In this document: positions 7,759 to 58,334 of the stretch, piece by piece
Layout: every line of letters begins with the position of its first letter
Position numbering within the stretch: position 1 is the stretch's first letter
Source of the DNA: an uncultured delta proteobacterium
GTDB lineage: Bacteria; Desulfobacterota; Binatia; UBA9968
Direction of reading: 5' to 3'
Assembly: GCA_963816145.1 (NCBI GenBank)
Contig: CAWFJP010000017.1
Span: forward strand, 128,001 to 192,000
DNA length: 64,000 nt
Notes under the pieces: generated by a model
Told to the model about the DNA's origin: nothing
The model's database searches: none
What the model saw: the letters and a program-made list of their open reading frames with translations, nothing else
Made by a program: the position numbers and the translations under genes

Positions 7759-7781
7759 GTTAAGCTGAGGACGTTAATCTC

Positions 7782-33898: not shown

Positions 33899-34123
33899 AA
33901 AAACCTCCTTGTTAAAGGTAGAAATTTGCTGACGCCACCGGCAACGTTATTAAGTCGACTCTATCCATCTTACTTTCGCAGACGTGAGCGCAAGGTTATT
34001 TGATTCGATCGATATCCGTCAAGAGACGTTGACGAATCCTCGAGCGATTCATTGACCCGGTGCGGTGGCAACCAGCCGCCGGGAATTACCTGCTTCACAA
34101 GCGAACCGTGATTCTCCCACTCC

Positions 34124-34600
34124 TCATAGCCCGAGCCAAGCTTGGATAACGCCGTCTTCGAATTGGATGTGGACCAACCACTGAAATAATCCATAGAAGC
34201 AACCCCAGGTGATCACCGTCGCCACAACGGTTCCTAGCCAACCGACGTCGCTCTGGAATTTGAGATAGCTGAAAATGAATAAGGGAACTGTCAGCGGAAA
34301 GCCGATCAGAAAAACTGAGAGAATGAAGCCGATAATCCAGGCGAAAGTGCCGATCACGCGGCGCCGTTCAATCTCGGGCGGCACGTCACTTGAAAACTCC
34401 ACATCGACCGCCGCCCCGCTGTCAACTTCTGTTTTGCCGAAAATGATCTGGACCAGCTGGATCGTTAGGAGGGCGAGCAGCGGAATGCTGACCGCGAGTG
34501 GAAAGAGCGCGGTCTTAAAGCTCCAGCCGGAAGCCTGATAAATCGCATAGCCGGCGACGAAGAGTAAAAAGACACAGTAGAGTATGCGGCCGTTACGCAT
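34124..34600 (-). CDS. tctB: TctB family membrane protein
   Basis: LFP motif, 4 TM segments, overlaps tctA stop. Confidence 0.8.
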   Translation of the reverse strand: MRNGRILYCVFLLFVAGYAIYQASGWSFKTALFPLAVSIPLLALLTIQLVQIIFGKTEVDSGAAVDVEFSSDVPPEIERRRVIGTFAWIIGFILSVFLIGFPLTVPLFIFSYLKFQSDVGWLGTVVATVITWGCFYGLFQWLVHIQFEDGVIQAWLGL

Positions 34601-36104
34601 CGTCCGAACTCCCATCGCGCCAGCGCCGTTTCTGCATATATGGATAGACAATCACGAACGCCATGACAGCGATCAGGAAGATTACCGTCGGGTGCGTGAG
34701 CCAGCTGAAGCCGTAACGGGTCATGGAAATAAACAAATAGGTTTCGATCACTTTGCCCAAGACAAAGCCCAAGACAAACGGCGGCCGGGGCCAGCCGAAT
34801 AGCACCATGAAGTAGCTGATCGCGCCAAAAATCGCAGTGACGACCAGGTCGGCGATCTGGTTGTTGGCGGTATAGCTGCCGACGAAAACCAACAAAAGAA
34901 TGAAGGGAATGATCAAGCTGCCGCGCACGTAGGTAACTTTGGCAATTTGATCGAGAATCGTCAGGCACAACAGCACGGTAACGATGTTGGCGATTGCCAA
35001 GGTCCAGACCATCGAGAAGGTGATTGCCAGATGTTTGGTCAACATATCCGGCCCCGGCGTGAGTCCCATGATCAAAAAGCCGCTGAGTAGGATCGCCATG
35101 GCGCCGCTACCAGGGACACCGAAGGCCACCGTCGGGATCAGCTCGCCGCCTTCTTTCGAATTGTTCGCAGCCCCTGGTCCTAATACGCCCCGCACGTCGC
35201 CTTTGCCGAAACGCTCGCGATCTTTGGCATCCTTGGCGCTCTGCACCGCGTGAGCATAAGCCATCCATTGAGCGACGCCGCCGCCGGCGCCGGGCAGAAT
35301 TCCGACGAATACGCCAATAACCGAACAGCGGAAGACCAACCAAAAATGGCGAAAGGTGTCTTTGATCCCGTCCATCACGCCGCTGCTCAATTTTTCCTGG
35401 GGTTGATCACCGGCGATGGCGGTGCCGCGCACCGCAAGATCGATGATTTCCGGAATCGCAAAGACACCGACCAAAACCGGTACGAAATCGAGCCCCTCCC
35501 AGAGGTACATCATGCCCATGTCGAATCGGAGCGTACCGGATTGGCGCTCCTGACCGATGGTTGAAACCAGTAGGCCGAAAAGACCCATAGCAAAGCCTTT
35601 GATCTGCCCGCGCGCCCCTTCACCGCTCAGCGAAGTGATGCACGAGATGCCGATCACCGATAACATGAAGAGTTCCGGTGAACCGAAGGCGAGCACCAAC
35701 GGGCGGACAATCGGGATCGCCAGCGCGAGCGCCACCGCGCCGATGAGTGCGCCAAGCAGAGAACTCATCAACGCCGCGCCGAGGGCGCGTCCGGCTTCAC
35801 CCTTTTTCGCCATCGGATAGCCATCGACGACGGTCGCGGCGGAAATCGCCTCGCCGGGCACGCCGAAGAGAACCGAAGTGATATCACCGGTAGTCGCCGC
35901 CACCGAATGCATGCCGAGCAAAAAGGCGAACGCCTCGGCAGGCTGCATTTTGAAAACAAAGGGGATCATCAAGGCGAGGGTCGCCGCGCCGCCGATACCC
36001 GGCAGCAGACCGACGCAGAAGCCAAGCCCCATGCCGACCAGCATCAAGCTGAAAGCTTTCCACTGAAGAACTAGGAAAAGTCCGTCGATGAATGCGTCGA
36101 GCAT
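34593..36104 (-). CDS. tctA: Tripartite tricarboxylate transporter permease TctA
   Basis: GLLPGIGG, VDGYPMAKKG, GAANNSKEGG, PTVAFGVPG, PFVLGFVLG. Confidence 0.93.
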   Translation of the reverse strand: MLDAFIDGLFLVLQWKAFSLMLVGMGLGFCVGLLPGIGGAATLALMIPFVFKMQPAEAFAFLLGMHSVAATTGDITSVLFGVPGEAISAATVVDGYPMAKKGEAGRALGAALMSSLLGALIGAVALALAIPIVRPLVLAFGSPELFMLSVIGISCITSLSGEGARGQIKGFAMGLFGLLVSTIGQERQSGTLRFDMGMMYLWEGLDFVPVLVGVFAIPEIIDLAVRGTAIAGDQPQEKLSSGVMDGIKDTFRHFWLVFRCSVIGVFVGILPGAGGGVAQWMAYAHAVQSAKDAKDRERFGKGDVRGVLGPGAANNSKEGGELIPTVAFGVPGSGAMAILLSGFLIMGLTPGPDMLTKHLAITFSMVWTLAIANIVTVLLCLTILDQIAKVTYVRGSLIIPFILLLVFVGSYTANNQIADLVVTAIFGAISYFMVLFGWPRPPFVLGFVLGKVIETYLFISMTRYGFSWLTHPTVIFLIAVMAFVIVYPYMQKRRWRDGSSDDA

Positions 36105-38860: not shown

Positions 38861-39044
38861 GAGCGCTGTGCAGGCCGTAAATCTACGACAATAAGGCCAT
38901 AGTGTACCAGACCCACTCCAGGTCAAACAAGGATTTTCCGCCACCATTGACGGGTGCCTCATGTATGAACACGCGCTGGAACGCTTGACAACCTCGGTGG
39001 CCCAGACAATAGATGACGGAAGCACCAAGGACAGGGAGAAATCG

Positions 39045-40643
39045 ATGGCCAATCCGGCAAAGTATTATCGTGACTTTCGTGAGCACTTAAAGGCGCTTGA
39101 GGAGCGCGGCAAACTGGTCCGCATTCAACGGGAAATCAACAAAGATACCGAACTGATGCCGCTCGTGCGTTGGCAGTTTCGCGGGCTCGAGGAGCAAGAC
39201 CGCAAAGCGTTCATGTTCGAGAAGATCATTGATTCCAAGGGCAAACGTTATGCGATGCCGGTGACTGTAGGAACCTTAGCCGCGACCACGGAAATCTATG
39301 CCATCGGCATGATGTGCGAACCCGCGCAAATCGCCGAACGCTGGAACCAGGCACAATTGAATCCCTTCGAGCCTACCAAGGTGACTTCGGCACCCGTCCA
39401 TGAGGTCGTCTGGCAAGGCCAAGACCTGCTCAATGGCCATGGGCTGGACATGATCCCAGTGCCGATCTCGACACCGGGCTTCGATAACGCGCCGTATTTA
39501 ACTTCGGCTAATTGGATTACCAAAGACCCCGAAACCGGTATTTACAACATCGGCAACTACCGTAGCCAAATCAAGTCGGCGAACCGCACCGGCGGTCTGT
39601 TCACCACACAGCATATGGGACAGCATTGGCGCAAGGCGAAGACCAAGGGTCAGCGGTTGGAGGCGTGCATCGCCATCGGCGTGGTGCCGAGCATCGCCTA
39701 CTCGGCGACCGCCAAAATCCCTTACGATTTCGACGAATACCGTCTAGCTGGCGGTTTGGCCGGCGCGCCAGTGGAGGTCGTGCAAGCGAAAACCGTCAAC
39801 TTGCTCGTGCCCGCCACCGCGGAAATCATCATCGAAGGGACGATTCCCACCGATATCGTCGAGCCGGAAGGCCCGTTCGGCGAATATCCAGGCTACATGG
39901 GCCACCGCACCGAATCGCCGTTTCTCGAAGTCACCTGCATCACGCACCGACGCGACGCAATATACACCGCGCTGATGAGCCAGTTCCCGCCCAGCGAATC
40001 GAGCAAGATCAAGCACACCGGCACGGAAAAGATCATCTACAAACTGCTGCGCCACGACAGCGGCAACTCGGCGGTACTCGACGTCGCCCTGCATGACGAA
40101 GTCAGCGGCAGTGGTCAGGCCTATTGCGTGATCAAAATGCGCAATGCCACTAAGGCCGAAGCCTGGCGCGCGCTCCACGCCACCGCCGGCTTTACCGGCA
40201 GCTACGCCAAGGTCTGCGTCGCGGTGGATGAAGACATCGATATTCACGATCCGGCGATGATCAATTGGGCGATCTGCTACAACATGCGCCCCGATGAAGA
40301 TGTGGTGATTTCCAAAGGGAAAATGGCCGGACTCGATCCGTCGACCTACCCGCCGGGAATGGAAAAGGAAGACCGCCGCGCCACTTCAACCTCCGCGTTG
40401 CTGATCAATGCGATCCGACCCTGGCCCTACACGCCGGTGTCGCTGCCAAAACGAGAATTTATGGAGCGCTCCAAGCAGATTTGGGAAGAACTCGAGCTCC
40501 CGCCGCTTAAGCCGCGCATGCCTTGGTACGGCTACAGTTTGGGCGCCTGGACCCAGCAAGACGAAGAGGAAGCGGAACTAGCCGTCAAAGGTGATTACTT
40601 CGAAACCGGCAAAAAGCAGACCGGGCAGAGAAAAAAGTCCTAA
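39045..40643 (+). CDS. UbiD family (prFMN-dependent) decarboxylase
   Basis: DFREHL, NIGNYR, VPATAEIIIEG, EGPFGEYPGY, VAVDEDID; GGAG RBS before ATG 39045. Confidence 0.92.
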   Translation: MANPAKYYRDFREHLKALEERGKLVRIQREINKDTELMPLVRWQFRGLEEQDRKAFMFEKIIDSKGKRYAMPVTVGTLAATTEIYAIGMMCEPAQIAERWNQAQLNPFEPTKVTSAPVHEVVWQGQDLLNGHGLDMIPVPISTPGFDNAPYLTSANWITKDPETGIYNIGNYRSQIKSANRTGGLFTTQHMGQHWRKAKTKGQRLEACIAIGVVPSIAYSATAKIPYDFDEYRLAGGLAGAPVEVVQAKTVNLLVPATAEIIIEGTIPTDIVEPEGPFGEYPGYMGHRTESPFLEVTCITHRRDAIYTALMSQFPPSESSKIKHTGTEKIIYKLLRHDSGNSAVLDVALHDEVSGSGQAYCVIKMRNATKAEAWRALHATAGFTGSYAKVCVAVDEDIDIHDPAMINWAICYNMRPDEDVVISKGKMAGLDPSTYPPGMEKEDRRATSTSALLINAIRPWPYTPVSLPKREFMERSKQIWEELELPPLKPRMPWYGYSLGAWTQQDEEEAELAVKGDYFETGKKQTGQRKKS

Positions 40644-40700
40644 GGTGAACTGGTTACGAGTTGGAGGTACCAGGCGACCCGAAACTCGAAATTTTCGGTC

Positions 40701-41153
40701 TTAGAAGAGCCCCGGTATCCAGCGGTGCACCGAAGATAAATAATCGACATACGGCTGACCGAGCGTTTGTACAAGTTTTTTCTCGTCACCGACCACTCGG
40801 GTGTGGAACCAAACCGCAGTGCCAATCGTGATCAACGCAGCGAACCAGGACTTTAGCGTCAGGGTAAGGCCGATGAGAAAAATGATGTGGCCCAGATACA
40901 TGGGATTGCGCGTATAGGCGTAAAACCCGGTTGTCACCAAGCGCTCGGGCGGGGCGTCCAGTCCCGGACCGCCGCCGCCACGGATACCCCGATAGCGGCC
41001 GCAGAGTCGATACTGCAAATAACCCCAGACCATCAGCGGTGCGAAGTAATACGCTGGCCGCAGTCGAGCACCGTGGACCGCTAGTTCCCAAGCGACGGTA
41101 ACGGCTGGATAGAGTACAAATGTTCGCACCGGGGTGCGGCTAAAAAATCGCAT
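40701..41153 (-). CDS. Isoprenylcysteine carboxylmethyltransferase/PEMT family membrane protein
   Basis: LVTTGFYAYTRNPMYLG, E..L...G..Y..Y...V.RWIP. Confidence 0.85.
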   Translation of the reverse strand: MRFFSRTPVRTFVLYPAVTVAWELAVHGARLRPAYYFAPLMVWGYLQYRLCGRYRGIRGGGGPGLDAPPERLVTTGFYAYTRNPMYLGHIIFLIGLTLTLKSWFAALITIGTAVWFHTRVVGDEKKLVQTLGQPYVDYLSSVHRWIPGLF

Positions 41154-41170
41154 TGTATTAGCAAAAAAGT

Positions 41171-41926
41171 ATGGCCCTGGATTTAACACATATTCTTGTC
41201 GGCGTCGCCTTGTTACTTGCCGCCTTCGTCAAAGGCGCTACCGGCCTCGGCTTCCCGCTCATCGCAACGCCGATGGTCGCGTTACTATTGGACATACGCA
41301 TCGCCGTGACGATCCTCATCCTGCCCAATCTTTTGATGGATATAACCCAGGTGTTTCGCAATGGCTTTCCCTACGCGATCCTGCAGCGCTTCAAATCGAT
41401 GATCGGCCTGACCATCATCGGGGTATTCATCGGGACCATGGTGTTAGTGATGTTGCCCCTATGGGCGCTCAATCTGAGCTTGGGAATCATGGTATTGATC
41501 TTCGTGACCTCGAACCTGCTAAAGTTCGAATTTACGATTTCTGCCGGGGCAGAAAAATTCCTCTCGCCGCTCTTTGGGCTGCTGAGCGGTTTTCTCAATG
41601 GCATGACCAATGCGGCGGGACCTACTCTAGCGATTTATTTCTACAGCTTGAAGCTTGAGAAGCGCGACTTCGTCAAATCCGTCGCGTCGATCTTCATGAT
41701 CACCAAGGCGACGCAATTGATCGCCGTGTCGACCTGGAATCTGTTCAATTGGAATACCCTCACCCTATCTCTGCAAGTGGTGCTTTTCACCTTGGTCGGT
41801 TTCTTCGCCGGCCTGAAAACTCAGGATCGGGTGAACCAAAAAACCTTTAGCCGGGGATTGATGGTGCTGCTGTCGATGGTCGGGTTAATCCTGATCGCGC
41901 GGGCGCTCAGCCAAGCGCTCAAGTGA
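41171..41926 (+). CDS. Sulfite exporter TauE/SafE family
   Basis: FVKGATGLGF, LSGFLNGMTNAAGP, ~8 TM segments. Confidence 0.88.
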   Translation: MALDLTHILVGVALLLAAFVKGATGLGFPLIATPMVALLLDIRIAVTILILPNLLMDITQVFRNGFPYAILQRFKSMIGLTIIGVFIGTMVLVMLPLWALNLSLGIMVLIFVTSNLLKFEFTISAGAEKFLSPLFGLLSGFLNGMTNAAGPTLAIYFYSLKLEKRDFVKSVASIFMITKATQLIAVSTWNLFNWNTLTLSLQVVLFTLVGFFAGLKTQDRVNQKTFSRGLMVLLSMVGLILIARALSQALK

Positions 41927-41970
41927 CTTGCCACGGGTTCTGCGAAGTCGCAGAGCGCGGTAAATATGCT

Positions 41971-42693
41971 TCACAGGGCCGGGGCGTACAAATTGTTCGG
42001 CAAAGCGCGGACGTAGTCGAGCGCCTCTTTGAGCGGGATCACGTCGGCATACTTCATCGCCATGTCGAATAGATTGATCTTGTGCGAAGCCTGGCCGCGG
42101 TCGAAAACACACTCTTCGACCACCGAGACTTTCAAGTTATAGGAGAACGCGTCGATGACGCTGGCGCGCACGCAGCCGCTGGTGGTGGTGCCGCAGACAA
42201 GCAAGCTGTCAGCATGGACTTCGGTCAGCATGCTCATAAGCGGCGTGCCGAAAAAAGCGCTGGGCTTTTGCTTGCGCACGACGATATCCCCGGGCTGGGG
42301 AGCGATCTCTTCGACGATCTGATTGGCTTTCTCCCATTGCTCGGTCATGTCTTCCGTGGTGCGGTTGCTTTTGGCCGCCCAACCGCCAACCAAAACCGTG
42401 CTGTTAGCGCGATTCTCCTCGGCGGTGGTATAAAACGTCGGCACATGCTTTTTGCGAGCATCGCCGAGCAACTGGCCAATCGCATGGACACCGTCCCAAC
42501 CTTCTTCACCGCAGCTGGTACGAAAACGCTTCACCGACTCGAGGATCGGTTCGGGTTTATCGCCGGTAAAATTGTAATTGACGTCGATAATCAACAGCGC
42601 CGGCCGCTGCCCCAACCCGGCTTTCTTACCGAAACCCGATAGCGCGAAAACTTCTTTGTCGCGCGGCGTCAAGATATCGTCCCAGCTCGCCAT
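41971..42693 (-). CDS. Isochorismatase-family cysteine hydrolase (maleamate amidohydrolase/N-carbamoylsarcosine amidase-like)
   Basis: PALLIIDV, KQKPSAFFGT, GTTTSGCVRAS, FDR, LFDMAMKYADV. Confidence 0.9.
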   Translation of the reverse strand: MASWDDILTPRDKEVFALSGFGKKAGLGQRPALLIIDVNYNFTGDKPEPILESVKRFRTSCGEEGWDGVHAIGQLLGDARKKHVPTFYTTAEENRANSTVLVGGWAAKSNRTTEDMTEQWEKANQIVEEIAPQPGDIVVRKQKPSAFFGTPLMSMLTEVHADSLLVCGTTTSGCVRASVIDAFSYNLKVSVVEECVFDRGQASHKINLFDMAMKYADVIPLKEALDYVRALPNNLYAPAL

Positions 42694-42845
42694 GAGAGAC
42701 CCTCCCCAATTGCACGTTTGCCGGATGTTCATAACAATTCGCAGGCGATGTCAAGTCGATATCGCCGCCGACACATTGACCCCAGGTCAACTGACGCCTA
42801 TAACGAGGGAAGCTCGGCAAACTAGAAAAGGGAATTTCGCCCACG

Positions 42846-43397
42846 ATGACGCAAATCGGCAAAACTCTTAAGCTAATCTTGGTATTTTTGCTCTTAACCG
42901 GCTGCGGTTCGTCCGTAGCGGTGTGGACCGATGGCGAAGTGCCGTTTGTCCGATCGACACCGGAAGTTATCGAGCGCATGCTCGATCTCGCGCAGGTGAA
43001 ACCAGGCGATGTCATCTACGATATCGGCAGCGGCGACGGCGCGATCATCATCTATGCGGCAAAAAAATACGGCATCAAAGGCGTCGGTATAGAAATCGAT
43101 GAGGGCTTGGTCGAGCGCGCGCGCCGCAGCGCATATGTCGAAAACGTCCAGCATCTGGTCGAGTTTCGCGCCCAGGACGCCTTCACCGTCGACATCTCTC
43201 CCGCCACCGTCGTAACGCTCTACATGCTGCCGGAATTCAACGCCAAACTGCGGCCGATCATGGATCGCCAGCTCAAGCCTGGCACGCGAGTCGTCTCCCA
43301 CGACTATCCGGTTGAAGGGTGGGTGCCGGACCGCATGGAGCCGGTTCGCGGTGACTTCCTCCATGACCACACAGTTCTGCTCTTTGAGATTCGTTAG
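42846..43397 (+). CDS. Class I SAM-dependent methyltransferase with a lipobox-like N-terminus
   Basis: VPFV pre-motif, YDIGSGDG motif I, GVGIEID, TVVTLY, RVVSHD; LLLTGC. Confidence 0.88.
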   Translation: MTQIGKTLKLILVFLLLTGCGSSVAVWTDGEVPFVRSTPEVIERMLDLAQVKPGDVIYDIGSGDGAIIIYAAKKYGIKGVGIEIDEGLVERARRSAYVENVQHLVEFRAQDAFTVDISPATVVTLYMLPEFNAKLRPIMDRQLKPGTRVVSHDYPVEGWVPDRMEPVRGDFLHDHTVLLFEIR

Positions 43398-43414
43398 AAT
43401 AAGCAACCGATCCA

Positions 43415-43586
43415 GCAAAGGGTAAGCCCGAAGCAGGGAAGCCAGCTAATTGTGCCGTCGCAAAATCTTATTTCATGCGTGGCTTTGAGCAATCGTAAAC
43501 TAGCCGGGAAACCCGGTTGCACCCTAGTCAACTTTCGTCTCAGAGGCAGAGGCCCATTGGCTTCACCGCGGAGGGTTACCCTTTGC
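43415..43586 (+). ncRNA. Putative structured non-coding RNA (~172 nt; 6S-like dimensions, family unassigned)
   Basis: Ends pair: GCAAAGGGTAA/TTACCCTTTGC and GAAGCCA/TGGCTTC; inner stems CTTTGAG/CTCAGAG and GCCGGG-AAA-CCCGGT; wobble pairs favour the + strand; terminator follows. Confidence 0.5.
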
Positions 43587-43626
43587 CACGCTCTAACTGC
43601 CAAACGCGCAATTCGCGCTAAAACGC

Positions 43627-43654
43627 AAAAGGCCCCGCATAAGCGAGGCCTTTT
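43627..43654. terminator. Bidirectional rho-independent terminator
   Basis: AAAAGGCCCCGC-ATAA-GCGAGGCCTTTT between convergent units. Confidence 0.75.
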
Positions 43655-43678
43655 AAGAATCACACACTTGAATAGATC

Positions 43679-45223
43679 TTAGTCGCTTGCGGTCGTCGGA
43701 AACATCAGCGACTTAACAGTGACTGGAATGACTTCGGTGATACCCAAGCATTCACCGATATCGATATAGTCCAAATCGCCCACTTCGATGCCGTCAATCG
43801 CAATAATATCCCGAGAAACTTGAAGCTCCTCCCGCAGGATGGCGCCGAGTGACTTGGCGATATCCAAATCCAGGGTCAAATAAAGCGGACACTTTGAATC
43901 GTCGGCTTCTTTGAGAATCTTCGCCACGCCTTCGGCAATGCGCCGGACCGATTGATAGTCCGGCACGCCACTCACGGTTAACGACAAAGCTAACCCGGAA
44001 GTGAAGCAGCTCAGGTCAAACTTTCTGAGCGCCTGTTTGATCGCTTCGGCCACCGACTCGCCGGCGCGGATCGGCGCTTGAATGACCTTTAGACCATGCA
44101 CCGGCAGGGCTTTCTCGTTGGAGACATAGCTGGTGTTGCCGCTCGCTTGGATGGTGTACTCGCCGGCGCCGATGACCGTGGCGCGAATACCTTCGATGGG
44201 CTCGCGCAGGACATCCTTAGGGAGCTTTTTTAAATAGTCGCGCATGTTCTTGCCGAGCACCGGCCCGATGTCGCCGTACGCTTTCGGATCGCGGTCGTAG
44301 ACATGCTCGGAAACGCCACCGGAAAAAACCAGGTGCTGCACTTGCTTGAAACCGGCGTAGTTGACGAACGGCGGCGTCACCATCAGTGAACTCGCCATCG
44401 GCGACTTTGGGCCTTGTTCGATGACCTCGAAGAGAATCTTCGCCATATAGGCGCCGAAGTCTTCTTTCATTTTCTCACTGATCTTCTGGCCGAGCGCAAC
44501 TTTATGGCCGAGCTCATTCATCATGATTCGCCCCGGCTCTTCGATACGCGTTATCTGGTCCTTTTCATCGAAAGCGATGAGCCGCGCCCCGATGCTGATC
44601 GAGGCCGTTTGCGTCACGACGCCTTCTTCGACAAGCGAAAATTTGGTCGTGCCACCACCCATATCGACATTGAGCACGGTCTTGTGCTCGCCCTTCGACA
44701 GATCCACCGCGCCACAACCGTAAGCAGCTAATAGCGCTTCGTGGTTATGCCCCGCCGCCGCGCAGATAAACTTACCGGAGTATTTGGCGAAGTTCTCAAC
44801 GATCGGCTGCGCGTTTTCTTTTTTCAAAGCTTCGCCAGTGATGATCACCGCGCCGGTATCGACATCTTCCGGCGTCAAGCCCGCCTCCTTATAAGCGTTG
44901 TGGATGAAGTCATTCACCTTATCAGTGTCGATCTTGGTCGCCGAGATATAGGGCGTCAGCATAATCGGCGAGCGGTAGAGCACCTCGCGACCGGTGACCC
45001 GGAACTTACCCGATAACGACGCGCCTTCGCGCCGCAGCGTTATGTGCGAAAAAATCAAATGCGATGTGGAAGAACCGATGTCGATGCCCACGCTTTTCAG
45101 CGAAAACATCTCCAACCCCTCGATGTCGGTGACGATCTCATCCTCTTTAATAATGAAATTGTCGGGATGGTCGTGATCGTAGATATCGTCGTGCATCTGT
45201 AGCCTCTGTATAGTATCCGCCAT
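43679..45223 (-). CDS. EutA-like (ethanolamine ammonia-lyase reactivase family) ASKHA ATPase
   Basis: SVGIDIGSSTSHLIFS, TGAVIITGE..KKENA, NVDMGGGTTK, FSGGVS, IRATVIGAG, DYIDIG, VIPVTVKSLMF. Confidence 0.85.
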   Translation of the reverse strand: MADTIQRLQMHDDIYDHDHPDNFIIKEDEIVTDIEGLEMFSLKSVGIDIGSSTSHLIFSHITLRREGASLSGKFRVTGREVLYRSPIMLTPYISATKIDTDKVNDFIHNAYKEAGLTPEDVDTGAVIITGEALKKENAQPIVENFAKYSGKFICAAAGHNHEALLAAYGCGAVDLSKGEHKTVLNVDMGGGTTKFSLVEEGVVTQTASISIGARLIAFDEKDQITRIEEPGRIMMNELGHKVALGQKISEKMKEDFGAYMAKILFEVIEQGPKSPMASSLMVTPPFVNYAGFKQVQHLVFSGGVSEHVYDRDPKAYGDIGPVLGKNMRDYLKKLPKDVLREPIEGIRATVIGAGEYTIQASGNTSYVSNEKALPVHGLKVIQAPIRAGESVAEAIKQALRKFDLSCFTSGLALSLTVSGVPDYQSVRRIAEGVAKILKEADDSKCPLYLTLDLDIAKSLGAILREELQVSRDIIAIDGIEVGDLDYIDIGECLGITEVIPVTVKSLMFPTTASD

Positions 45224-45243
45224 TTTCTCCTACCCTAATAACA

Positions 45244-45273
45244 GGAATCCCCGCTCCTTGGAGCGGGGATTCC
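45244..45273. terminator. Near-perfect 30-nt palindrome between the cupin and EutA-like genes
   Basis: GGAATCCCCGCTCC-TT-GGAGCGGGGATTCC. Confidence 0.55.
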
Positions 45274-45304
45274 GTAATCAAACTTTTAAGTCGTTACAGT
45301 TAAT

Positions 45305-46438
45305 CTATTGCTTGCCCATCGCTTTGGACCATTCGTAGTCCGGGTTGCTGTAGCATTCGTCGGGCATGATGCTCTTGATGCCGCGTTTGCCCAACTCCTC
45401 TTCAAACTTCTTACGAATAAACGGATCCTCGTTGGGATACTCGATCTGATCCTTGGCGCGATCTTCGACCTTTTCCGCATGGCCATGGAACTGCATCGGT
45501 GGATGAAGTGCCAAATAACGCGCCATATCACCGCCGGCATTGAAATGCTGGTGGAACCACTTATCCGGCGGAGTAATCATGCTGCATTCATGCCATGGGC
45601 AAACGATCTTTTCTTTGCCCTCTTCCCACATGATTGAATAGCCTTCGCCGGCGGGAATGATGATCGCGCGGCCCGGGCCATGGCGATGCGCTTTCTTGTA
45701 GGTCTTAGGCGCGAACACCGACATGTGAGCGGTAAGTTCGGAATTGGGGAACTGCATGAACACGCTCTTGCCGCCGGCGCCGCGCCGTTCGTTGGCATCG
45801 AGCTTGTTCCAGGCACGCATGTCCGGGAAGAAGTTACCGTACCAGAAGGCGCGCATGCCCAACCCTTCGTCGGCATCCTTCGCCTGAACCATTTTGGCTT
45901 CCGAATAGAAATCGCCCTGGTCGGCGGTGATTTTAGGCTCGTAAGGATTGTTGAAATACATATCGGGTTCCGGCAACGCTGACATCGCCATCGGCATGTA
46001 GCTGTAGTGGAACAAGCGGATCGGCTTGTCGCCCGTCATATTGCTGAAGACATGCCAATGATTGCGCGGCACGAGAAACATCGAGTGCTCTTGCCATTCG
46101 AAATTCTTCTTCGCTTTGCCTTCACCTGCCCATACGGTGGTCAATCCGCGGCCGGAGCAAACGTAAACGACCTCATCCAAGGCGAACTTTACCGGCGGCA
46201 ACGACTTACCGGGAGGTACTTCAGTGACACGCGCGGCGCTGACACCTTCTTGCCCCCACAACTGAATGAAGGCGGCCTTGCAGCCTCTTTCTTCCCACCA
46301 TTCCAATTCAACGGTGCGGAGATCTGGGATAAAATAACCCTTGTGGATTGGGATGCCCTTGGATTTCATCCACCGGTCATAGGTGAATTCCTTGCTCCAC
46401 ATCGTGATTACGGGTTCTTGATTCGCCGTTTCGGCCAT
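45305..46438 (-). CDS. Bicupin protein (gentisate 1,2-dioxygenase-like architecture), function unknown
   Basis: Two cupin repeats: DEVVYVCSGRG..FLVPRNHWH and KKAHRHGPG..PPDKWFHQHFN; AAGGAGG RBS. Confidence 0.82.
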   Translation of the reverse strand: MAETANQEPVITMWSKEFTYDRWMKSKGIPIHKGYFIPDLRTVELEWWEERGCKAAFIQLWGQEGVSAARVTEVPPGKSLPPVKFALDEVVYVCSGRGLTTVWAGEGKAKKNFEWQEHSMFLVPRNHWHVFSNMTGDKPIRLFHYSYMPMAMSALPEPDMYFNNPYEPKITADQGDFYSEAKMVQAKDADEGLGMRAFWYGNFFPDMRAWNKLDANERRGAGGKSVFMQFPNSELTAHMSVFAPKTYKKAHRHGPGRAIIIPAGEGYSIMWEEGKEKIVCPWHECSMITPPDKWFHQHFNAGGDMARYLALHPPMQFHGHAEKVEDRAKDQIEYPNEDPFIRKKFEEELGKRGIKSIMPDECYSNPDYEWSKAMGKQ

Positions 46439-46476
46439 AAAACTTCCTCCTTACTGCGTTCTCTTTTGCTATTTAC

Positions 46477-46893
46477 TTATCTTCTTGTCTCTTTACTAGC
46501 AACCTGGAGCCGGGCCAATGCGCGCCGTTGCGCCTCTTCAAGTTGCCCATACTCGGGGTCCTCGAAATTGACCTCGCCCATACGCTTTTCAGCTCGTTCC
46601 TTAGCCCTCTGCGCGCGCGCCGTATCGATCTCGGCGGGAAACTCGGCCGCCGGGGCGAGCACGGTCATGACATTATCCAATACCTCGGCATAGCCACCGC
46701 CGATGACCAAGGAATGACGGGCAGCGCCTTGTTTGTAGCTCATCTCTCCGGCGACCAATGTCGACAAGAAGGAAATATGATTGGGCAGGACGCCAAACTC
46801 GCCCAATTCGCCCGGCGCGCTGACCTCGTCGACTTCCTCTTCAAGTACCAGCCGGCTCGGGGTTACGACTCTTAGTTTAATCTTGTCTGCCAT
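46477..46893 (-). CDS. atpC: ATP synthase F1 epsilon
   Basis: LRVVTP, PGELGEFGVLPNH, GGYAEV, IDTARA. Confidence 0.95.
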   Translation of the reverse strand: MADKIKLRVVTPSRLVLEEEVDEVSAPGELGEFGVLPNHISFLSTLVAGEMSYKQGAARHSLVIGGGYAEVLDNVMTVLAPAAEFPAEIDTARAQRAKERAEKRMGEVNFEDPEYGQLEEAQRRALARLQVASKETRR

Positions 46894-46905
46894 GGTAAAT
46901 ACCAA

Positions 46906-46968
46906 GGCGTGAGGCGATGGGCGCGAGTCCGGAATCTGACTCATGCCTCATGACTCACGCCCCATGCC
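46906..46968. repeat. Inverted array of ~7-nt units between atpD and atpC
   Basis: GGCGTGA/GGCGATG/GGCGCGAGTC facing GACTCAT/GCCTCAT/GACTCAC/GCCCCAT/GCC. Confidence 0.6.
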
Positions 46969-46972
46969 TAAC

Positions 46973-48400
<1,428 letters not shown>

Positions 48401-48405
48401 TCATA

Positions 48406-48483
48406 TCGTGTTCGTGCCCGTGGTTCGTGCTCGTAAATCCATATTCCGAGTCTCCCCGAACACGATCACGAGCCACGGTCACG
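48406..48483. repeat. Inverted array of ~6-nt units between atpG and atpD
   Basis: (NNCGTG)n facing (CACGNN)n. Confidence 0.65.
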
Positions 48484-48487
48484 TCTT

Positions 48488-49354
<867 letters not shown>

Positions 49355-49365
49355 CGCTGCAAAAA

Positions 49366-49424
49366 TTTCTAGCTTCTAGTCGGATCTTTCTAGCTACGAC
49401 GAACTAGAAACATGAAACTAGGAA

Positions 49425-49428
<4 letters not shown>
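49366..49428. repeat. Inverted array of ~7-nt units between atpA and atpG
   Basis: TTTCTAG/CTTCTAG/TTTCTAG facing CTAGAAA/CATGAAA/CTAGGAA. Confidence 0.6.
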
Positions 49429-50933
<1,505 letters not shown>

Positions 50934-50943
50934 CTCTTGCTCC

Positions 50944-51486
50944 TTAATAACCGCGCGCGATGCGCTGTTTCATCTTTTCCAATTGCGTTCGCAAGCTGCC
51001 GTCGTAGATCTTTCCTTCAAGCTCCACTTGGAGGCCGCCAAGTAAATCCGGCTCGACTACCTGTTGGAGGATGACTTCTTTGCCGGAAATAGCGCGCAGC
51101 TGACCGCGCACCCGCTCGACCATCGCCGGCTCGAGCGCATTCGCGCTGACCACTTTGGCATCGACGCGGCCTTTGGCATCATTGAGCAAGCGGCGATAAC
51201 AACTGACGATACCAGGCAGGTGGCCCAAGCGGTCGCGCTCCAGGAGCAGCGACAGAAACCTGACGGTCAATGACGACAGGCGCTCGCTCTGCGCAACTTG
51301 GTTCAGTATCCGTTTTCGCGTGTCAACAGGAAATGCGGGATTGGTCAGTACTGGCTGCAGGTCGGATCGGCTATACTCCGAATGAAATTGTTCGATCTCG
51401 ACGCCGACCGCCTCTTCCTGGCCGCCGTCGCGCGCCAATTGAAAAATCGCCTTGGTGTATCTGCGTGCTAAACTGCCTTCGGTCAT
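50944..51486 (-). CDS. atpH: ATP synthase F1 delta
   Basis: [25 protein letters not shown]. Confidence 0.95.
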
Positions 51487-52049
51487 CGCGCCTGTCCAAT
51501 GCTTTGAATAAATTCATCCGCCAGGCGGTTTTGATCGTCCACCGACAAGTTGCGTTGGAGCAATGCCCGCGCCGTGGCTTCTGCCTGGATCGCCATTTCC
51601 TCGCGAATTTTCTGCCGCGCCATTTTGACTTCTTGATCGGCAAGAATCCTGGCGTCATCTTTGACCTTTGCCGCCATGGCATTGGCGTCGGCGAGCAGTT
51701 TGGCTTTGTCGCGCTCGCCTTCGTCGCGAAGGGTCGCTTGTAAGGTTTGCACTTCTCGGTCCACCGCGGCGAGTTTGGCTTGATATTCGTCAACCATGCC
51801 CTGGGCGGCGGCCATTTTTGCCGAAGCTTGCGACATCGTCGCAATCACTTCTTCGCGCCGGCTTTTTAGAAAACTGCGCACCGCCGGAAGCGCGTACTTG
51901 ACGATAATAAAGGCGTAGATCAGAAAATTGAGGGCAGGGAAAATGACATCGGTGATCGGCGGCGCGTGATGCTCGGCGCCATGACTGGCAGCTTCCGAAG
52001 CCCACAACTGTGCCGTGGTGAAAAGATCGAGAAAATCCTGGCTGCTCAC
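51483..52049 (-). CDS. atpF: ATP synthase F0 subunit b
   Basis: TM with LNFLI, FLKSRREEV, long coiled coil; position in operon. Confidence 0.9.
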   Translation of the reverse strand: MSSQDFLDLFTTAQLWASEAASHGAEHHAPPITDVIFPALNFLIYAFIIVKYALPAVRSFLKSRREEVIATMSQASAKMAAAQGMVDEYQAKLAAVDREVQTLQATLRDEGERDKAKLLADANAMAAKVKDDARILADQEVKMARQKIREEMAIQAEATARALLQRNLSVDDQNRLADEFIQSIGQAR

Positions 52050-52474
52050 CCGACTCTCCTCCCGAGAACTTTGTTCACCATGTCCGCAGCCACTACGCTG
52101 ACTTCCGCCGCCACAAGCCGTTTTTCCTGTTCCATGGCGGCGGCTACCTGCTGTCTAACCTGTTCGAGGCTACGGCCGGCCTCATCGCGGGCTTGGCCGA
52201 GAATCTTTTCGCGCTGCTGGCGCGCGTCCTGGTTGATCGCCTCTTTAGCCGCGTAACCTGCCGCTTGCCCTTGGGCCATCTTCTCGTCGAATTGGGCCTT
52301 TAGCCTGGCACCCTCATGCTCGAGGTCGACCGAATCATGTTGAGCTCCGGTGGTCTTGCGCTCGCGCTCTTCCAACAAGCGCAAATACGGTTGAAAAAGC
52401 AGCTTATTGAGAATCAGCCACAGGACGACGAACAGAACGATTTGATAGACGATGCTGTAATCAAGTTGAATCAT
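52046..52474 (-). CDS. ATP synthase F0 subunit b'
   Basis: QIVLFVVLWLILNKLLFQP..LEERE, coiled coil, VLGR. Confidence 0.9.
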   Translation of the reverse strand: MIQLDYSIVYQIVLFVVLWLILNKLLFQPYLRLLEERERKTTGAQHDSVDLEHEGARLKAQFDEKMAQGQAAGYAAKEAINQDARQQREKILGQARDEAGRSLEQVRQQVAAAMEQEKRLVAAEVSVVAADMVNKVLGRRVG

Positions 52475-52637
52475 GATCAACGACCGCTAACAGTTATACT
52501 TTCACCCTACTTCGCCCAACTCGGAATGGCGAAATGCAGCTCCCAAATAATAAAAAACCCACATTCTTTTGCGAACGTAGGATCGAGGATCGGGAAGATG
52601 ACGGACAACGAACCGAGGTCTATTTCTTACAATCGAG

Positions 52638-53195: not shown

Positions 53196-53439
53196 TTTCC
53201 GGTTCTCCCCGTGCCTGGGCAGAGTTTCCTATAACATCCGAGAATCTCATTGTCAAAACGCCGCTGACAAAACCAACCAGGCTCGCGTCGATGCTGCAAG
53301 TGAGCGCTTAAACCGCAAATCAAGTGATTCGCGAAAACCGCAAATGGACAACCTCGCTCATCCTACAAACGCGACAATATTAGTTCAGTCCTTGACCGTT
53401 TAGATCACATTGTTTAGCTTAACACCAGCTGATCTATAT

Positions 53440-54399
53440 ATGACCCATCTCCGCCTGCTCACCAAGCTCGCACTGCTGATTCTTCTATCGCTGTCCCAAC
53501 CAGCCGCCGCGCAAACTCTGTTACGGGTCGCTACTCCCGGCGCGCTCACCGGGGCTTTGCCAATCTACCTCGGCGCCAAAAGGGGCGTTTTTCAGAGATA
53601 CGGATTGACCGTCGAAGTCATAGCCACGCGCAACGAACAAATGAACATGCAGGCACTGATGTCCGACAGCGTGCAGTTCCTGACTTCAAGCTCCACCGGC
53701 CTATTTTACTTGGGCAAGCAGGGCTTGGATGCGGTTGGCGTCGCATCCTGGAATAATGCTTCGCCCTATAGCCTCGGCAGCCGCTTCAAGATCAAAGCAC
53801 TCAAGGAATTGAAAGGCAAAAAGATCGCCTCCAGCGGCGCCGGCGGCCGCGCGGATGCGTTTATCAATTTCATGCTCACCAAAGCCGGCTTGAACCCGAA
53901 AACCGACGTGCAGATACTTCCGCTCTCCGGCGGCTCGCCAGTGCGCCTGGCCGCCGTGGTCTCCGGCAATCTTGACGCCACCTTGATCTCATCCTTGCAA
54001 GGCCGCCACGCTGAAAAGCTTGGCCTCACGGTGCTGCCGATCCCGCTCGAATATATCTGGGGCATTAATTTGACCCGGCGATCCTATCTGACCAAGAACC
54101 GCGAGACCGTGAAGAATTACCTACGCGGTTTAGCCGATTCGGTCCGTCTGATGATGGCGGACAAAGAATCCACCCTTGCGGTGATGGCGCAGGTGCTAAA
54201 AATCGACGACCGAGACAGCCTTGAATACTCCTATCGGATCATGAAAGCCGATGCCCGGCCTGATCTATTTCCGAGCGAAGAAGCGATTGTCAACGTTTTG
54301 AAGACCATGGTCTATGAAGATCCGGCCTTCGGCCAGATCCCGCCATACAAGTTTTTCGACCTATCGTTGATTCAAGAACTCAAGTCGGAAGCCCGCTAA
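53440..54399 (+). CDS. NitT/TauT-family ABC substrate-binding protein
   Basis: Signal peptide, GVFQRYGLTVE, ELKGKKI, GLNPKTDV, FDLSLIQEL. Confidence 0.85.
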   Translation: MTHLRLLTKLALLILLSLSQPAAAQTLLRVATPGALTGALPIYLGAKRGVFQRYGLTVEVIATRNEQMNMQALMSDSVQFLTSSSTGLFYLGKQGLDAVGVASWNNASPYSLGSRFKIKALKELKGKKIASSGAGGRADAFINFMLTKAGLNPKTDVQILPLSGGSPVRLAAVVSGNLDATLISSLQGRHAEKLGLTVLPIPLEYIWGINLTRRSYLTKNRETVKNYLRGLADSVRLMMADKESTLAVMAQVLKIDDRDSLEYSYRIMKADARPDLFPSEEAIVNVLKTMVYEDPAFGQIPPYKFFDLSLIQELKSEAR

Positions 54400-54414
54400 A
54401 CAAGAGGAAGGGTT

Positions 54415-55362
54415 ATGAAACTGCTCATCGGCTTAATCGCGGCCTGGCTCGCGGGTGCCAGCGCAAGCGTCAGCGCGGAGGTCGTCCGCGGCACCTACCC
54501 ATCGGCCAACGTGCAATTTCTGCCGGCGTTCGTTGACCTGGAGAAAGGCATCTATAAGCGCGAGGGTGTGGACGCCGAGTTGATCTCCGTGCGCAACCAC
54601 GTTACGGCAGTGCAGGCACTGCTCGGCAATCAGTTCCATTTCATCTTTTCCGTCGGCCCGCAGATGCCGTCGATCGGGGAAGACGGCGATATCGTCCTGC
54701 TCGCCCAGCAAATCGGCCGGCCGACCTTTTCCATGATGGTGACCCCAGATATTAAAACCGTCGCCGATTTGAAGGGCAAAAAAATCGGCCTCAGCTTCGG
54801 CGGCTCGACCTTCGCCGGCACCAAGGCGCTCTTGGAGCTTTACAAAATGAATCCCGACAAAGATGTTCAGTACGTCAGCATTCCCGGCAGTCAACCGAAG
54901 ATTGCCGCCATGCAGCAGGGCATCATACAAGCCGCGCTGCTCGCGCCGCCGTCGGACTATGTCGCCTTGAAGGCGGGCTTCAAGCGGCTGGCCAATCTGG
55001 CCGACCTGTTCAAAGACACGTCGTTTACCGGCCTTGCCGCCACTGGCAAGACCATCAAAGAAAACCCGCAGTTCGTCAAATGCATGGTGTGCGCCATCGT
55101 CCGCAGCGTGATCCATACCCGAGACTACCCTGAAGACGCGATTGGTACCATGATGAAACATTGGCGCATGGAGCACGATGTCTCGGTGGACGCGTACAAC
55201 TTAATCAAGGAAGCGCTGCAACCGGTGCCGACGGAGAAGGGCGTCGAACTAATGTCCCAGTGACAGGCGGTGGCGCTGAATACCAAGTCCAAGCGGCCCG
55301 TGCGCGAATATATGGACCTGCGCTTCGTCAACGAAGTGATGGTTGAATTAACTCAGAAATAA
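54415..55362 (+). pseudogene. NitT/TauT-family substrate-binding protein with a premature TGA
   Basis: TGA at 55261-55263; the same frame continues [32 protein letters not shown] to 55362, giving the family-typical C-terminus. Confidence 0.75.
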
Positions 55363-55372
55363 TCAACAGGAG

Positions 55373-55975
55373 GTGAGAGTGAAAAAATTATTTATCGTCG
55401 CAATGCTATGCGCCGTATTTGGATGGGGCGCGAATGCCAATAGCCAGGAAAAAAAGGGACCGCTTTACGCCACCTTTAAAACCAGCATGGGCGACATCGT
55501 CGTACAACTATTCGAGGAGAAAGCGCCTAAGACCGTCGCCAACTTCGTCGGCCTCGCCAGCGGCACCAAGGAATGGACCGATCCTAAGACCGGTGAGAAA
55601 GTGAAGAAGCCGCTCTATAATGGCACGATCTTTCACCGGGTCATCCCTGGTTTCATGATTCAAGGCGGCGATCCCTTGGGCAACGGCACCGGCGGACCCG
55701 GTTATCGTTTCGAAGATGAATTCCATCCCGACCTGCGCCACACCAAAGGCGGCATCCTGTCGATGGCCAACGCAGGGCCGAACACGAACGGCAGCCAGTT
55801 TTTCATTACCCTCGCGCCCACGCTGCATTTGGACAACCGTCACAGCGTGTTTGGCGAAGTAATCAAGGGACAAGAAGTAGTCGTCGCCATCGGCGCCACC
55901 CCGCGCGACGGGCGTGACCGGCCGACCAAAGACGTCGTGATCAAAGAAATCGTTATCAGCCGCGGCAGTTACTGA
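55373..55975 (+). CDS. Cyclophilin-type peptidyl-prolyl isomerase with signal peptide
   Basis: [40 protein letters not shown]. Confidence 0.95.
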
Positions 55976-56009
55976 TTCTGACGCCGCCAACCAAACGCGG
56001 GAGGCACCG

Positions 56010-56987
56010 ATGCGATTCGCTAAGGTCACTATGCTATGGACATTGGTTTTCGTTTCGGTCCTCTTCGCCCGCGCGATTAAGGCCGCGGAAATTCCGTTAC
56101 CGCAAGCCACCGCGGTGTATGGCGTCATCGCCACTGATCCGATTTATCTTTGGATCGCCCAGGAGAGAGGCTTCTTCAAAAAGAACGGTCTCAATATCGA
56201 TCTTACCCATATTCCGACCAACCAGGCGGTGCAGGCGTTGGTCGGCGGCAAGATTCAATTCACCACCGCCGGACCGCAAATCATTGAAGCCAATCTCGCC
56301 GGCGCCGACACGGTTTACATCTTGAGCCCGGTCAACACTTTTGTCTTTTCCATCTATAGCAAACCGGAAATCACCAGCATAAAAGGCCTAGCTGGAAAAA
56401 CCATCGGCGCGACCAACAAGGGAACACCCACCGACATTGCCGGACACATGGTTGTCACCCAGAGCGGTTTGAAGCCGGATGTCGATGTAAAGTTCGCTTA
56501 TCTGAAGGAAATCCCCGCCCTGGTCGCCGCCTTGCAGCAAGGCATCATCGATGCGGCGATTCTTTCGGCGCCCAGCACACTCACCGCGCGCAATTTCGGC
56601 TTAAAAGAACTGCTCAACGTCACCGCCCTGAAAATTCCCTTCGTGCAGCATGGCATCGGCACAACCCGCTCATTCATCAACACCTACCAAGATCTGGTGC
56701 GGCGCTTTGTCCGCAGCGCAGCCGAAGGAATCGACTACGCGCGCAAGAACCGGGGTGACACCATTGCGATCCTGTCTAAATACACCAAGATCACCGACCC
56801 GGCCCAGCTACAAGAATCACTGTCCACCAACGAGCCGGCCTGGGAACGAATTCCCACACCAAACCAGCAGGCCATCGAAGCCGTGCTGGCCGCCTCGGAA
56901 AATCCCAAAGCCAAAGCTGCGAAGTGGGATCAGTTCGTCGACGATCGGTTTGTTAAGGAATTGGTGGCGGCGGGAGTGTTCAAGTAG
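56010..56987 (+). CDS. NitT/TauT-family ABC substrate-binding protein
   Basis: WIAQERGFFKKNGL, GLKPDVDV, GIIDAA, FVDDRFVKEL. Confidence 0.88.
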   Translation: MRFAKVTMLWTLVFVSVLFARAIKAAEIPLPQATAVYGVIATDPIYLWIAQERGFFKKNGLNIDLTHIPTNQAVQALVGGKIQFTTAGPQIIEANLAGADTVYILSPVNTFVFSIYSKPEITSIKGLAGKTIGATNKGTPTDIAGHMVVTQSGLKPDVDVKFAYLKEIPALVAALQQGIIDAAILSAPSTLTARNFGLKELLNVTALKIPFVQHGIGTTRSFINTYQDLVRRFVRSAAEGIDYARKNRGDTIAILSKYTKITDPAQLQESLSTNEPAWERIPTPNQQAIEAVLAASENPKAKAAKWDQFVDDRFVKELVAAGVFK

Positions 56988-57010
56988 GGGGCAGACCCCC
57001 GTGCCTGCCC
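56984..57010. repeat. GTAG-type REP-like hairpin
   Basis: GTAG followed by GGGCAG..CTGCCC stem, at the junction of convergent genes. Confidence 0.5.
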
Positions 57011-57035
57011 ATAATCCCATTGAACACTGAACCAG

Positions 57036-58296: not shown

Positions 58297-58334
58297 TGAC
58301 GTTTCTCCACCGACGCGTAAAGAGGTTTCTATCG

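Follow-up and report, generated by a model that had tools for sequence, protein, structure and literature searches.

A bicupin and a EutA-family ATPase encoded as a conserved gene pair: a EutA-type reactivase putatively repurposed to a cupin client

The bicupin-ATPase locus

The window analysed here, a stretch of 64,000 nucleotides from an uncultured delta proteobacterium (Desulfobacterota; Binatia; UBA9968; GenBank assembly GCA_963816145.1, contig CAWFJP010000017.1, positions 128,001 to 192,000), carries on its minus strand a gene for a bicupin followed by a gene for an ATPase of the EutA family, members of which are annotated everywhere as reactivases of ethanolamine ammonia-lyase, EutBC. 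These two open reading frames (ORFs) had been singled out in a first-pass annotation of the sequence, which proposed that the ATPase may serve the cupin, in a role independent of cobalamin (B12); both were recovered on the minus strand at the coordinates given there. The name ethanolamine ammonia-lyase reactivase is wrong for a large multi-phylum clade that occurs in genomes without EutBC and is tied to the bicupin by gene order and co-divergence, and the ATPase is filed here as a EutA-type reactivase putatively repurposed to a cupin client. All positions refer to the whole window and not to the unit alone.

45305..46438, minus strand: bicupin gene, 377 amino acids, cytoplasmic, with a predicted gentisate/salicylate-dioxygenase-like fold
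43679..45223, minus strand: gene for a EutA-family ATPase of the ASKHA (actin/Hsp70/sugar-kinase) type; ORF of 514 amino acids, or 505 from the conserved start at 45196
46439..46476, minus strand: spacer of 38 nt between atpC and the bicupin gene, containing the ribosome-binding site AGGAGG but nothing terminator-like
45244..45273, minus strand: perfect GC-rich hairpin of 13 bp (GGAATCCCCGCTCC...) with a weak T tail, within the 81-nt spacer between the bicupin and ATPase genes (terminator-like scan and sequence)
43620..43650, minus strand: terminator-like hairpin, GGCCTCGC-TTAT-GCGGGGCC followed by TTTTGCGTTTT, 29 nt past the ATPase stop codon (read from the sequence)

The unit is not free-standing. 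The gene for the epsilon subunit of ATP synthase, atpC (46477-46944, minus strand), precedes the bicupin gene by 38 nt and the ATPase gene comes next, the unit ending at the terminator-like hairpin. Since there is no terminator-like site between atpC and the bicupin gene and a hairpin follows the ATPase gene, the pair in this lineage looks like the tail of an atp transcript. The stem of the closing hairpin includes one G-U pair and was not listed by the consensus terminator scan. The hairpin in the inner spacer is possibly an attenuator or a transcript-stabilising element and may set the ratio of bicupin to ATPase protein. No sigma-70 promoter was found in a scan of 43200-47200 (2.8 sites expected by chance), the consensus used being one that may differ from the phylum's own.

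Conservation of the pair and the missing B12 client

In 55 of 60 related genomes the two orthologues lie next to each other on one strand, bicupin gene first; leaving out G005 and G035, which are unpublished, the figure is 53 of 58. The five exceptions (G002, G009, G017, G031 and G055) are cut at contig ends or have no orthologue. Many of these genomes have a second bicupin gene (66-69 % identical) just past the ATPase gene, often with one or two EamA transporter genes between. A pattern scan, with one genome taken per species, gave 80 ATPase loci from Binatia-like bacteria, Chloroflexota, Alpha- and Betaproteobacteria, Armatimonadota, Actinomycetota (Micromonospora), Bacillota (Alicyclobacillus herbarius) and Heimdallarchaeota. 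The bicupin gene is immediately upstream on the same strand at 49 of them, from at least six phyla, and immediately downstream at one; seven are not assessable, with contig ends upstream, and at 23 the bicupin is not adjacent. Within 6 kb on either side of the ATPase gene a bicupin is present at 56 of the 80 loci, and spacers between the two genes measure 3-17 nt in several lineages. The link to the cupin, on which the first-pass proposal depended, is thus conserved among relatives and across phyla. Only the ATPase-bicupin core is constant, the other neighbours being lineage-specific. At L068 (Chloroflexota) the ATPase gene is preceded by two Amidohydro_2 genes, another metal-dependent family, in place of the bicupin. 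At L047:5185-9491 (Rhizobiales) and L099:5082-10707 (Acidocella) the bicupin gene lies between two different EutA-family genes, one of a 'SSGTQ' subclade, whose His-rich tail is long, and one of a 'SSTSH' subclade, an arrangement that hints at a heteromeric ATPase.

The genome itself (7.8 Mb, 31 contigs, 99.47 % complete) has four full EutA-family genes, with mutual identities of 38-46 %, and about 24 bicupin-family genes. On C17, the contig of the window, and on C30 the ATPase gene directly follows a bicupin gene; on C14 the ATPase gene is followed by two haem-oxygenase-like (PF14518) genes and then by a bicupin gene, the latter 1.7 kb away, and on C2 there is no bicupin nearby. By our own estimate from 24 bicupins in 7.8 Mb, the chance of a bicupin lying within 2 kb of a given gene is about 1 %. 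The C14 locus (G000 C14:335843-344102), with three haem-oxygenase-like/TENA 'iron-containing redox enzyme' genes (PF14518/PF03070), an NMT1-like gene and the bicupin gene, is a second type of metal-enzyme neighbourhood for the ATPase family. The C2 paralogue (G000 C2:165863-176321; also at L049) has the tail LHEGHDEDFDD and is divergent to a cluster that by eye resembles MoxR ATPase, DUF58 and large membrane protein (about 1100 amino acids) genes. The bicupin family is heavily expanded, with some copies in tandem (G000 C4:543107-545477, C14:64670-65815 and C3:472424-473587), and most copies have no ATPase alongside; in five Chloroflexota genomes (G091, G155, G182, G191 and G200) a first look gave 55-117 bicupin candidates per genome, of which 13 per genome were scored.

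The two proteins have also diverged together. Over 48 pairs (45 from the loci and three from this genome) the identity matrices of the ATPases and of their partner bicupins correlate with a Mantel r of 0.93, reached by none of 999 permutations, although relatedness inflates such statistics. Independent of them is the contrast between orthologues and paralogues: orthologous pairs from Chloroflexota and from one alphaproteobacterial metagenome-assembled genome (MAG) have identities to the window pair of 54-58 % for the ATPase and 55-63 % for the bicupin, against only 38-40 and 30-34 % for the paralogous pairs within the genome. As orthologues from other phyla are closer than paralogues from the same genome, the pair has been inherited, duplicated or transferred as a unit.

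When profiles of the two families were run against 151 Chloroflexota genomes, each at least 80 % complete, the ATPase profile matched 11 and the bicupin profile 10. Both families were found in nine genomes, the ATPase alone in two (G136 and G172), the bicupin alone in one and neither in 139. In both ATPase-only genomes EutB is encoded directly beside the ATPase, and EutB was not found in three bicupin-rich Chloroflexota genomes. Phylogenetic profiling, which the first-pass annotation had proposed, therefore splits the EutB-linked from the bicupin-linked members cleanly in this phylum. In a tree rooted on three EutB-linked EutAs without the His tail (those of G136, G172 and Escherichia coli), the Heimdallarchaeota proteins branch first and the rest form one large clade, with bicupin adjacency spread throughout. 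The Heimdallarchaeota genes (L070, L093 and L096), which have neither His tail nor bicupin, lie tail-to-tail with a gene for a gamma-glutamyltransferase, an enzyme whose genes are also repeated neighbours of the pair in Chloroflexota (15 of the 80 loci overall).

None of the 58 ORFs of the window codes for EutB, EutC, a microcompartment or a cobalamin protein, as had been noted at first pass; 50 of them were scanned with Pfam and the eight ORFs of the atp operon (46477-52480) were judged by eye to be ATP synthase subunits. The ParA gene at 52-846, which hits the CbiA/ParA nucleotide-binding domain, was rejected as a cobalamin gene on account of adjoining ParB; parA and parB (52-1702) open the window, some 45-50 kb away from the atp operon. 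The whole genome gave no matches to EutB, EutC, PduC (diol dehydratase large subunit), GlmE (glutamate mutase E) or KamD (lysine aminomutase), the absences of PduC and KamD being weak as these two models matched no control genome. EutB was likewise found in none of 61 genomes of the same order, all of which carry both families of the pair, and not in four of five pair-holding genomes of other phyla. The exception is an Acidocella genome, which has EutB on its contig C8.

With no EutBC found for this ATPase to reactivate, as the first-pass proposal presupposed, and with the cupin link conserved, the pair is taken to be a unit that is very probably B12-independent on its genomic record. Comparative genomics (adjacency, co-divergence and the split in Chloroflexota) supports well both that the ATPase serves the cupin and that it acts independently of EutBC, which makes independence of B12 probable.

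Properties of the two proteins

Within the two genes the following regions were delimited.

44150..45106, minus strand: predicted ASKHA ATPase core, residues ~31-349 of the 505-residue form
43682..44149, minus strand: C-terminal alpha/beta domain of the EutA family, residues ~350-505 (Pfam match and E. coli EutA alignment reaching the C-terminus; secondary structure)
45101..45196, minus strand: acidic His-rich N-terminal tail of the ATPase, MHDDIYDHDHPDNF...IEGLEMF, predicted to be disordered (predicted local distance difference test score, pLDDT, below 50 for residues 1-27; order-wide conservation)
45545..45727, minus strand: metal-site region of the C-terminal cupin, H238, H251-x-H253 and H296-x-H298, with N300 just beyond
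45989..46351, minus strand: N-terminal cupin barrel (residues ~30-150), degenerate site F85, D88, E89, H129, F131 and N133

The ATPase matches the Pfam family EutA (PF06277) with 408.9 bits (cut-off 27; residues 42-508 against profile positions 3-474 of 475) and is 34 % identical to E. coli EutA (b2451) over 469 residues (33-501 of the 505-residue form). Like EutA it has the end-to-end architecture of the family and keeps the ASKHA motifs: phosphate-1 DxG, phosphate-2 DxGGGT and adenosine SGG are all present, and the nucleotide-binding motifs GxDxG, DxGGGT and SGGxxE are invariant in 40 clade members, which together with the PF06277 match bears out what the first-pass annotation had read in the protein. 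The structural model has a pLDDT of 84.3; the sequence compared with solved structures gave nothing useful. Presumably the protein is also, as EutA is, of the chaperone type and acts on a partner enzyme encoded next to it. It differs from EutA in that this partner is a bicupin and not EutBC, for which the genome has no match, in its additional His/Asp-rich tail of about 32 amino acids, in belonging to a clade apart from the EutB-linked members, and in missing all four NCBIfam EutA equivalog cut-offs (350.9 bits against 598, 275.6 against 769, 247 against 952 and 241.8 against 799). The reactivase of diol and glycerol dehydratases, DdrAB, of which DdrA requires the beta subunit, acts on a cobalamin enzyme, which the window ATPase probably does not; GlmL, the adenosylcobalamin (AdoCbl) reactivase of glutamate mutase, acts on a cobalamin enzyme as well.

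The acidic, His-containing tail that was pointed out at first pass (MHDDIYDHDHPD) is real and conserved. Alignments with orthologues (62-95 % identity) open at Met-His-Asp, where the Met is M10 of the ORF (position 45196), and the nine residues ahead of it are not conserved, so that by alignment the ATPase most likely has 505 amino acids. In this genome, however, the ATG further upstream, at 45223, is served by a good AGGAG site, a better Shine-Dalgarno sequence than that of 45196, which leaves the start codon ambiguous. Across the clade the tail has the form Met-His-Asp/Glu...HxH. An MH[DEQ] head is found in 62 of 84 assessable clade ORFs and L/V-H-[DE] in seven more, perhaps through alternative start codons, and the His-rich tail is missing from only five of the 84; as background, MH[DE] occurs within the first 75 residues of 17 of 5175 ORFs. 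The canonical, EutB-linked EutAs are without it.

This Met-His-acidic head, MHD at the conserved but ambiguous start of the window ATPase, resembles the N-terminal MHE of HypA, which binds Ni(II) via the terminal amine and His2 (PMC7055735). HypA, with HypB, is the Ni metallochaperone of [NiFe]-hydrogenase and urease and inserts metal into its client with a nucleotide-hydrolysing partner; there the nucleoside triphosphatase (NTPase) is a separate G3E GTPase, whereas here it would be an ASKHA ATPase fused to the motif. Homology goes no further than the three residues of the motif, and HypA was not among the Pfam matches. No invariant Cys was reported in the alignment of 40 ATPases, in which CxxC pairs were not searched as such, and a zinc CxxC site of the HypA type is therefore unlikely; as far as the alignment tells, the ATPase resembles HypA in the motif alone and is not a member of the HypA family.

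Genes of the NicO family (PF03824, nickel/cobalt transporters) were found at three of the 80 loci, from three different phyla or classes: directly 3' of the ATPase gene in A. herbarius (347.6 bits against the TIGR00802, HoxN/HupN/NixA, cut-off of 333), close to the pair in a member of the Rhizobiales, and in a Herminiimonas MAG with an ATPase gene on either side. Together with the tail they point to metal handling in a way that is suggestive, not strong, and for metal loading, one of the roles raised at first pass, the HypA-like N-terminus and these genes offer circumstantial support.

The bicupin hits generic Pfam cupin models only, and these only with its N-terminal half; it scores 18.8 bits against the NCBIfam model MabB (cut-off 650; relatives 31.7-41.7 bits), falls in cupin clusters only in the ESM Atlas, which has no structure for it, and its close homologues have generic public names such as 'cupin domain-containing protein'. 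Its AlphaFold2 model (pLDDT 90.8) consists of two strand-rich halves, and bicupin structures, with two double-stranded beta-helix barrels in one chain, align with it over 240-280 residues. The nearest folds by VIA-align are gentisate and salicylate 1,2-dioxygenases (3bu7, 2phd and 2d40), and the sequence has a marginal match to gentisate dioxygenase 3bu7 among solved structures (E 0.0055). Foldseek against the PDB, in which generic bicupins (MncA, vicilins and oxalate decarboxylase) came top at a TM score of about 0.45, was not discriminating.

An alignment of 70 members of the family shows H251 and H296 without exception and H238, H253, H298 and N300 with at least 90 % conservation, and all 52 ATPase-adjacent bicupins read HHHHHN at these six C-terminal columns. 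The fourth position usual in cupins lacks Glu, so that the C-terminal site would be of the 3-His type. In the N-terminal barrel most paralogues of the genome keep H85/E88/H129 or H131, where the window protein reads FDEHFN; His85 is lost in 38 of the 52 ATPase-adjacent bicupins, that of the window included. The column tabulation agrees with the first-pass observation that HxH...H is kept only in the C-terminal barrel, with KFA in the N-terminal one. In gentisate dioxygenase the 3-His Fe(II) site sits in the N-terminal barrel. The window bicupin departs from the gentisate and salicylate 1,2-dioxygenases in the place of its conserved HxH...H, the C-terminal barrel; its N-terminal His positions are taken by F85 and F131.

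The best explanation is that the bicupin is a metalloenzyme of the gentisate/salicylate 1,2-dioxygenase structural class, and its substrate is probably a hydroxylated aromatic acid. Neighbours at the 80 loci include NMT1/THI5-like proteins (20 loci), gamma-glutamyltransferases (as above), LigXa-like Rieske oxygenases, dienelactone hydrolases and class-III aminotransferases (12 each), luciferase-like oxidoreductases (11) and EamA transporters (8), with IclR regulators and TctA transporters also near the ATPase at several loci, a set that suggests the breakdown of small molecules, aromatic or nitrogenous.

Possible roles of the ATPase

The reading favoured here, on which our confidence is evenly balanced, is that the accessory ATPase is a maturase or reactivase of the metal centre of the bicupin, with metal delivery by the tail as its likeliest version. 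The bicupin would use H251, H253 and H296, backed by H238 and H298, as its working metal site, that of the N-terminal barrel having been lost. The EutA-family protein would have retained the chaperone-type ASKHA ATPase of an AdoCbl reactivase and gained a disordered, metal-hook-like tail. Such a tail would capture a divalent metal, for which Ni or Co is most suggestive and Fe(II) possible; the metal-carrying ATPase would then bind the bicupin, and ATP binding and hydrolysis would open the barrel, upon which the metal would be inserted or a spent or mis-metallated centre exchanged. We infer the direction of action, the identity of the metal and the need for ATP. Metal handling is indicated by the tail and the NicO genes, the only known activity of the family being chaperone-like, and since bicupin paralogues mostly occur without an ATPase, a helper that is shared or used conditionally fits better than an obligate catalytic subunit. 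It is doubtful whether the bicupin-linked EutA clade could go as far as being a new class of metallochaperone, a Hsp70/actin-fold ATPase with a HypA-like hook that would insert Ni(II) or Co(II) into bicupins.

Physical binding of the two proteins, inferred from modelling, has weak support. The predicted complex, a check suggested at first pass, gave interface-confidence (ipSAE) scores of 0.65, 0.58 and 0.59, against 0.00 for all three controls, with at least 49 % of contacts agreeing between runs and a partner pLDDT of at least 79; the tool rated the complex as 'weak support' (0.59 against 0.00) and for that reason returned no interface. Of 157 solved complexes only 18 passed with an ipSAE no higher than 0.60, and the only two mismatched pairs to pass also fell in that range. 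Contigs from RNA libraries (four libraries from four studies of sediment, freshwater sediment and soil) cover parts of both genes with 0-3 mismatches, gene parts without such cover carrying no meaning.

Several observations weigh against the favoured reading. The score of the complex is in the weak band of the tool, and no bicupin-ATPase fusion was found among seven longer relatives, which are tandem bicupins or unrelated fusions, an absence that is weak evidence. The RNA contigs bridge neither atpC and the bicupin gene nor the bicupin and ATPase genes, and may be DNA carry-over. About 21 of the 24 bicupin paralogues have no adjacent ATPase, and either need none or share one that serves many. 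Among the 23 loci without an adjacent bicupin, two (L040 and L057) are frameshift artefacts with the bicupin really upstream and four have it at 1.3-5 kb or on the opposite strand; the remainder are truly without it and include all three Heimdallarchaeota loci and L030 and L035. In the last two, from close Binatia-like relatives, atpC runs straight into the ATPase gene, from which it follows that the ATPase can persist without a bicupin neighbour. The related genomes are not independent, and the counts overstate the support accordingly. Known metallochaperone NTPases are mostly G3E GTPases and not ASKHA proteins. Translation from 45223 would leave the MHD non-N-terminal in this organism. The hint of Ni or Co is thin with 3 of 80 loci, and phmmer with two NicO queries found no NicO-type ORF of at least 250 amino acids in the genome, shorter ORFs and other Ni/Co uptake systems not being searched.

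That the ATPase is a pure reactivase, which like EutA would open the inactivated bicupin at the expense of ATP to release a dead-end ligand or an oxidised metal and would carry no metal itself, is an unlikely alternative. The His-rich tail would then be a docking or regulatory element, and the retention of MH[D/E]...HxH in at least 62 of 84 clade members, its lack in EutB-linked EutAs and the NicO genes beside the pair would be left unexplained. Rather improbable is ATP-coupled catalysis, in which the ASKHA protein would be a catalytic subunit, a kinase or an ATP-dependent activator of substrate or product, working with the bicupin in the manner of ATP-dependent carboxylases and hydrolases built on ASKHA modules. 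Its full-length homology is to EutA and not to a kinase, the many bicupin paralogues without an ATPase would be unexpected if the subunit were obligate, some loci have the ATPase but no bicupin, and a disordered tail of the metal-binding type is not a kinase feature.

It is very improbable that the pair is co-transcribed with the atp operon to serve ATP synthase or energy metabolism, for instance in assembly or metal supply. Besides the short, terminator-free spacer after atpC, the order atp operon, bicupin, ATPase speaks for it: this was found at six of eight relatives' loci compared and at 15 of 26 Binatia-like loci, and in two families of the order. The bicupin-less L030 and L035 still keep atpC followed by the ATPase gene, and both proteins are about as conserved as the gamma subunit of ATP synthase. 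In the third family of the order (L015 and L019), however, atp genes are not nearby, and outside these lineages the pair is never beside them, its neighbours being Rieske oxygenases, IclR regulators, transporters and hydrolases; the association is put down to inherited gene order. An ordinary B12 reactivase, with its AdoCbl client elsewhere or missed and the cupin neighbour coincidental, is close to refuted, for while Pfam and public annotation assign the protein to EutA and the Acidocella genome has both the pair and EutB, none of the five AdoCbl enzyme models matched in this genome, nor EutB in the 61 relatives, the best equivalog score is 350.9 against 598, EutB-linked EutAs group separately, and the cross-phylum adjacency and co-divergence are far beyond chance.

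For the favoured reading, a metal-centre helper of the bicupin, precedent exists in XylT-type ferredoxins, accessory proteins encoded beside catechol 2,3-dioxygenase that restore its metal centre. XylT is likewise a dedicated helper encoded beside a ring-cleaving dioxygenase; unlike the ATPase it is a small [2Fe-2S] electron donor, and its client has a different fold. Full-text literature searches, in which subscription journals were not covered, found no paper on a EutA homologue paired with a cupin; the papers listed for the two names together deal with EutQ, the cupin of the eut microcompartment, or with ectoine 'eut' genes. Should the ATPase mature or repair the centre of the bicupin, it would be the first ASKHA-type protein to assist a cupin enzyme and a metal-centre maturation route apart from the G3E GTPases, and as a metallochaperone it would represent a new kind of maturation system. 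It would also provide a handle on a heavily expanded and unstudied enzyme family, of which abundant uncultured soil bacteria carry tens of paralogues each. If the clade were indeed a metallochaperone for Ni or Co, ring-cleaving (or related) oxygenases dependent on that metal and matured at the expense of ATP would be widespread among the Binatia, Chloroflexota and Proteobacteria of soil and sediment, and the B12 reactivase EutA would be a specialised offshoot within a wider family of maturases for metal centres. Both proteins are soluble, and cultured carriers include A. herbarius DSM 13609 and a Micromonospora strain.

Other genes of the window were also considered. The UbiD-family decarboxylase, isochorismatase-like hydrolase, TauE exporter and methyltransferase genes at 38961-43397 were rejected as members of the unit, as none recurs beside the pair in relatives. 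The window has two UbiD-family decarboxylase genes, at 38961-40643 (3 kb from the pair) and at 16865-18454 (beside a class II aldolase gene), neither of which accompanies the pair in relatives. Three TctABC-type transporter sets are found in the window (7297-10321 and 32885-36104), and four genes of the NMT1/THI5-like solute-binding type are grouped around an Ldh_2 dehydrogenase gene at 53410-59366.

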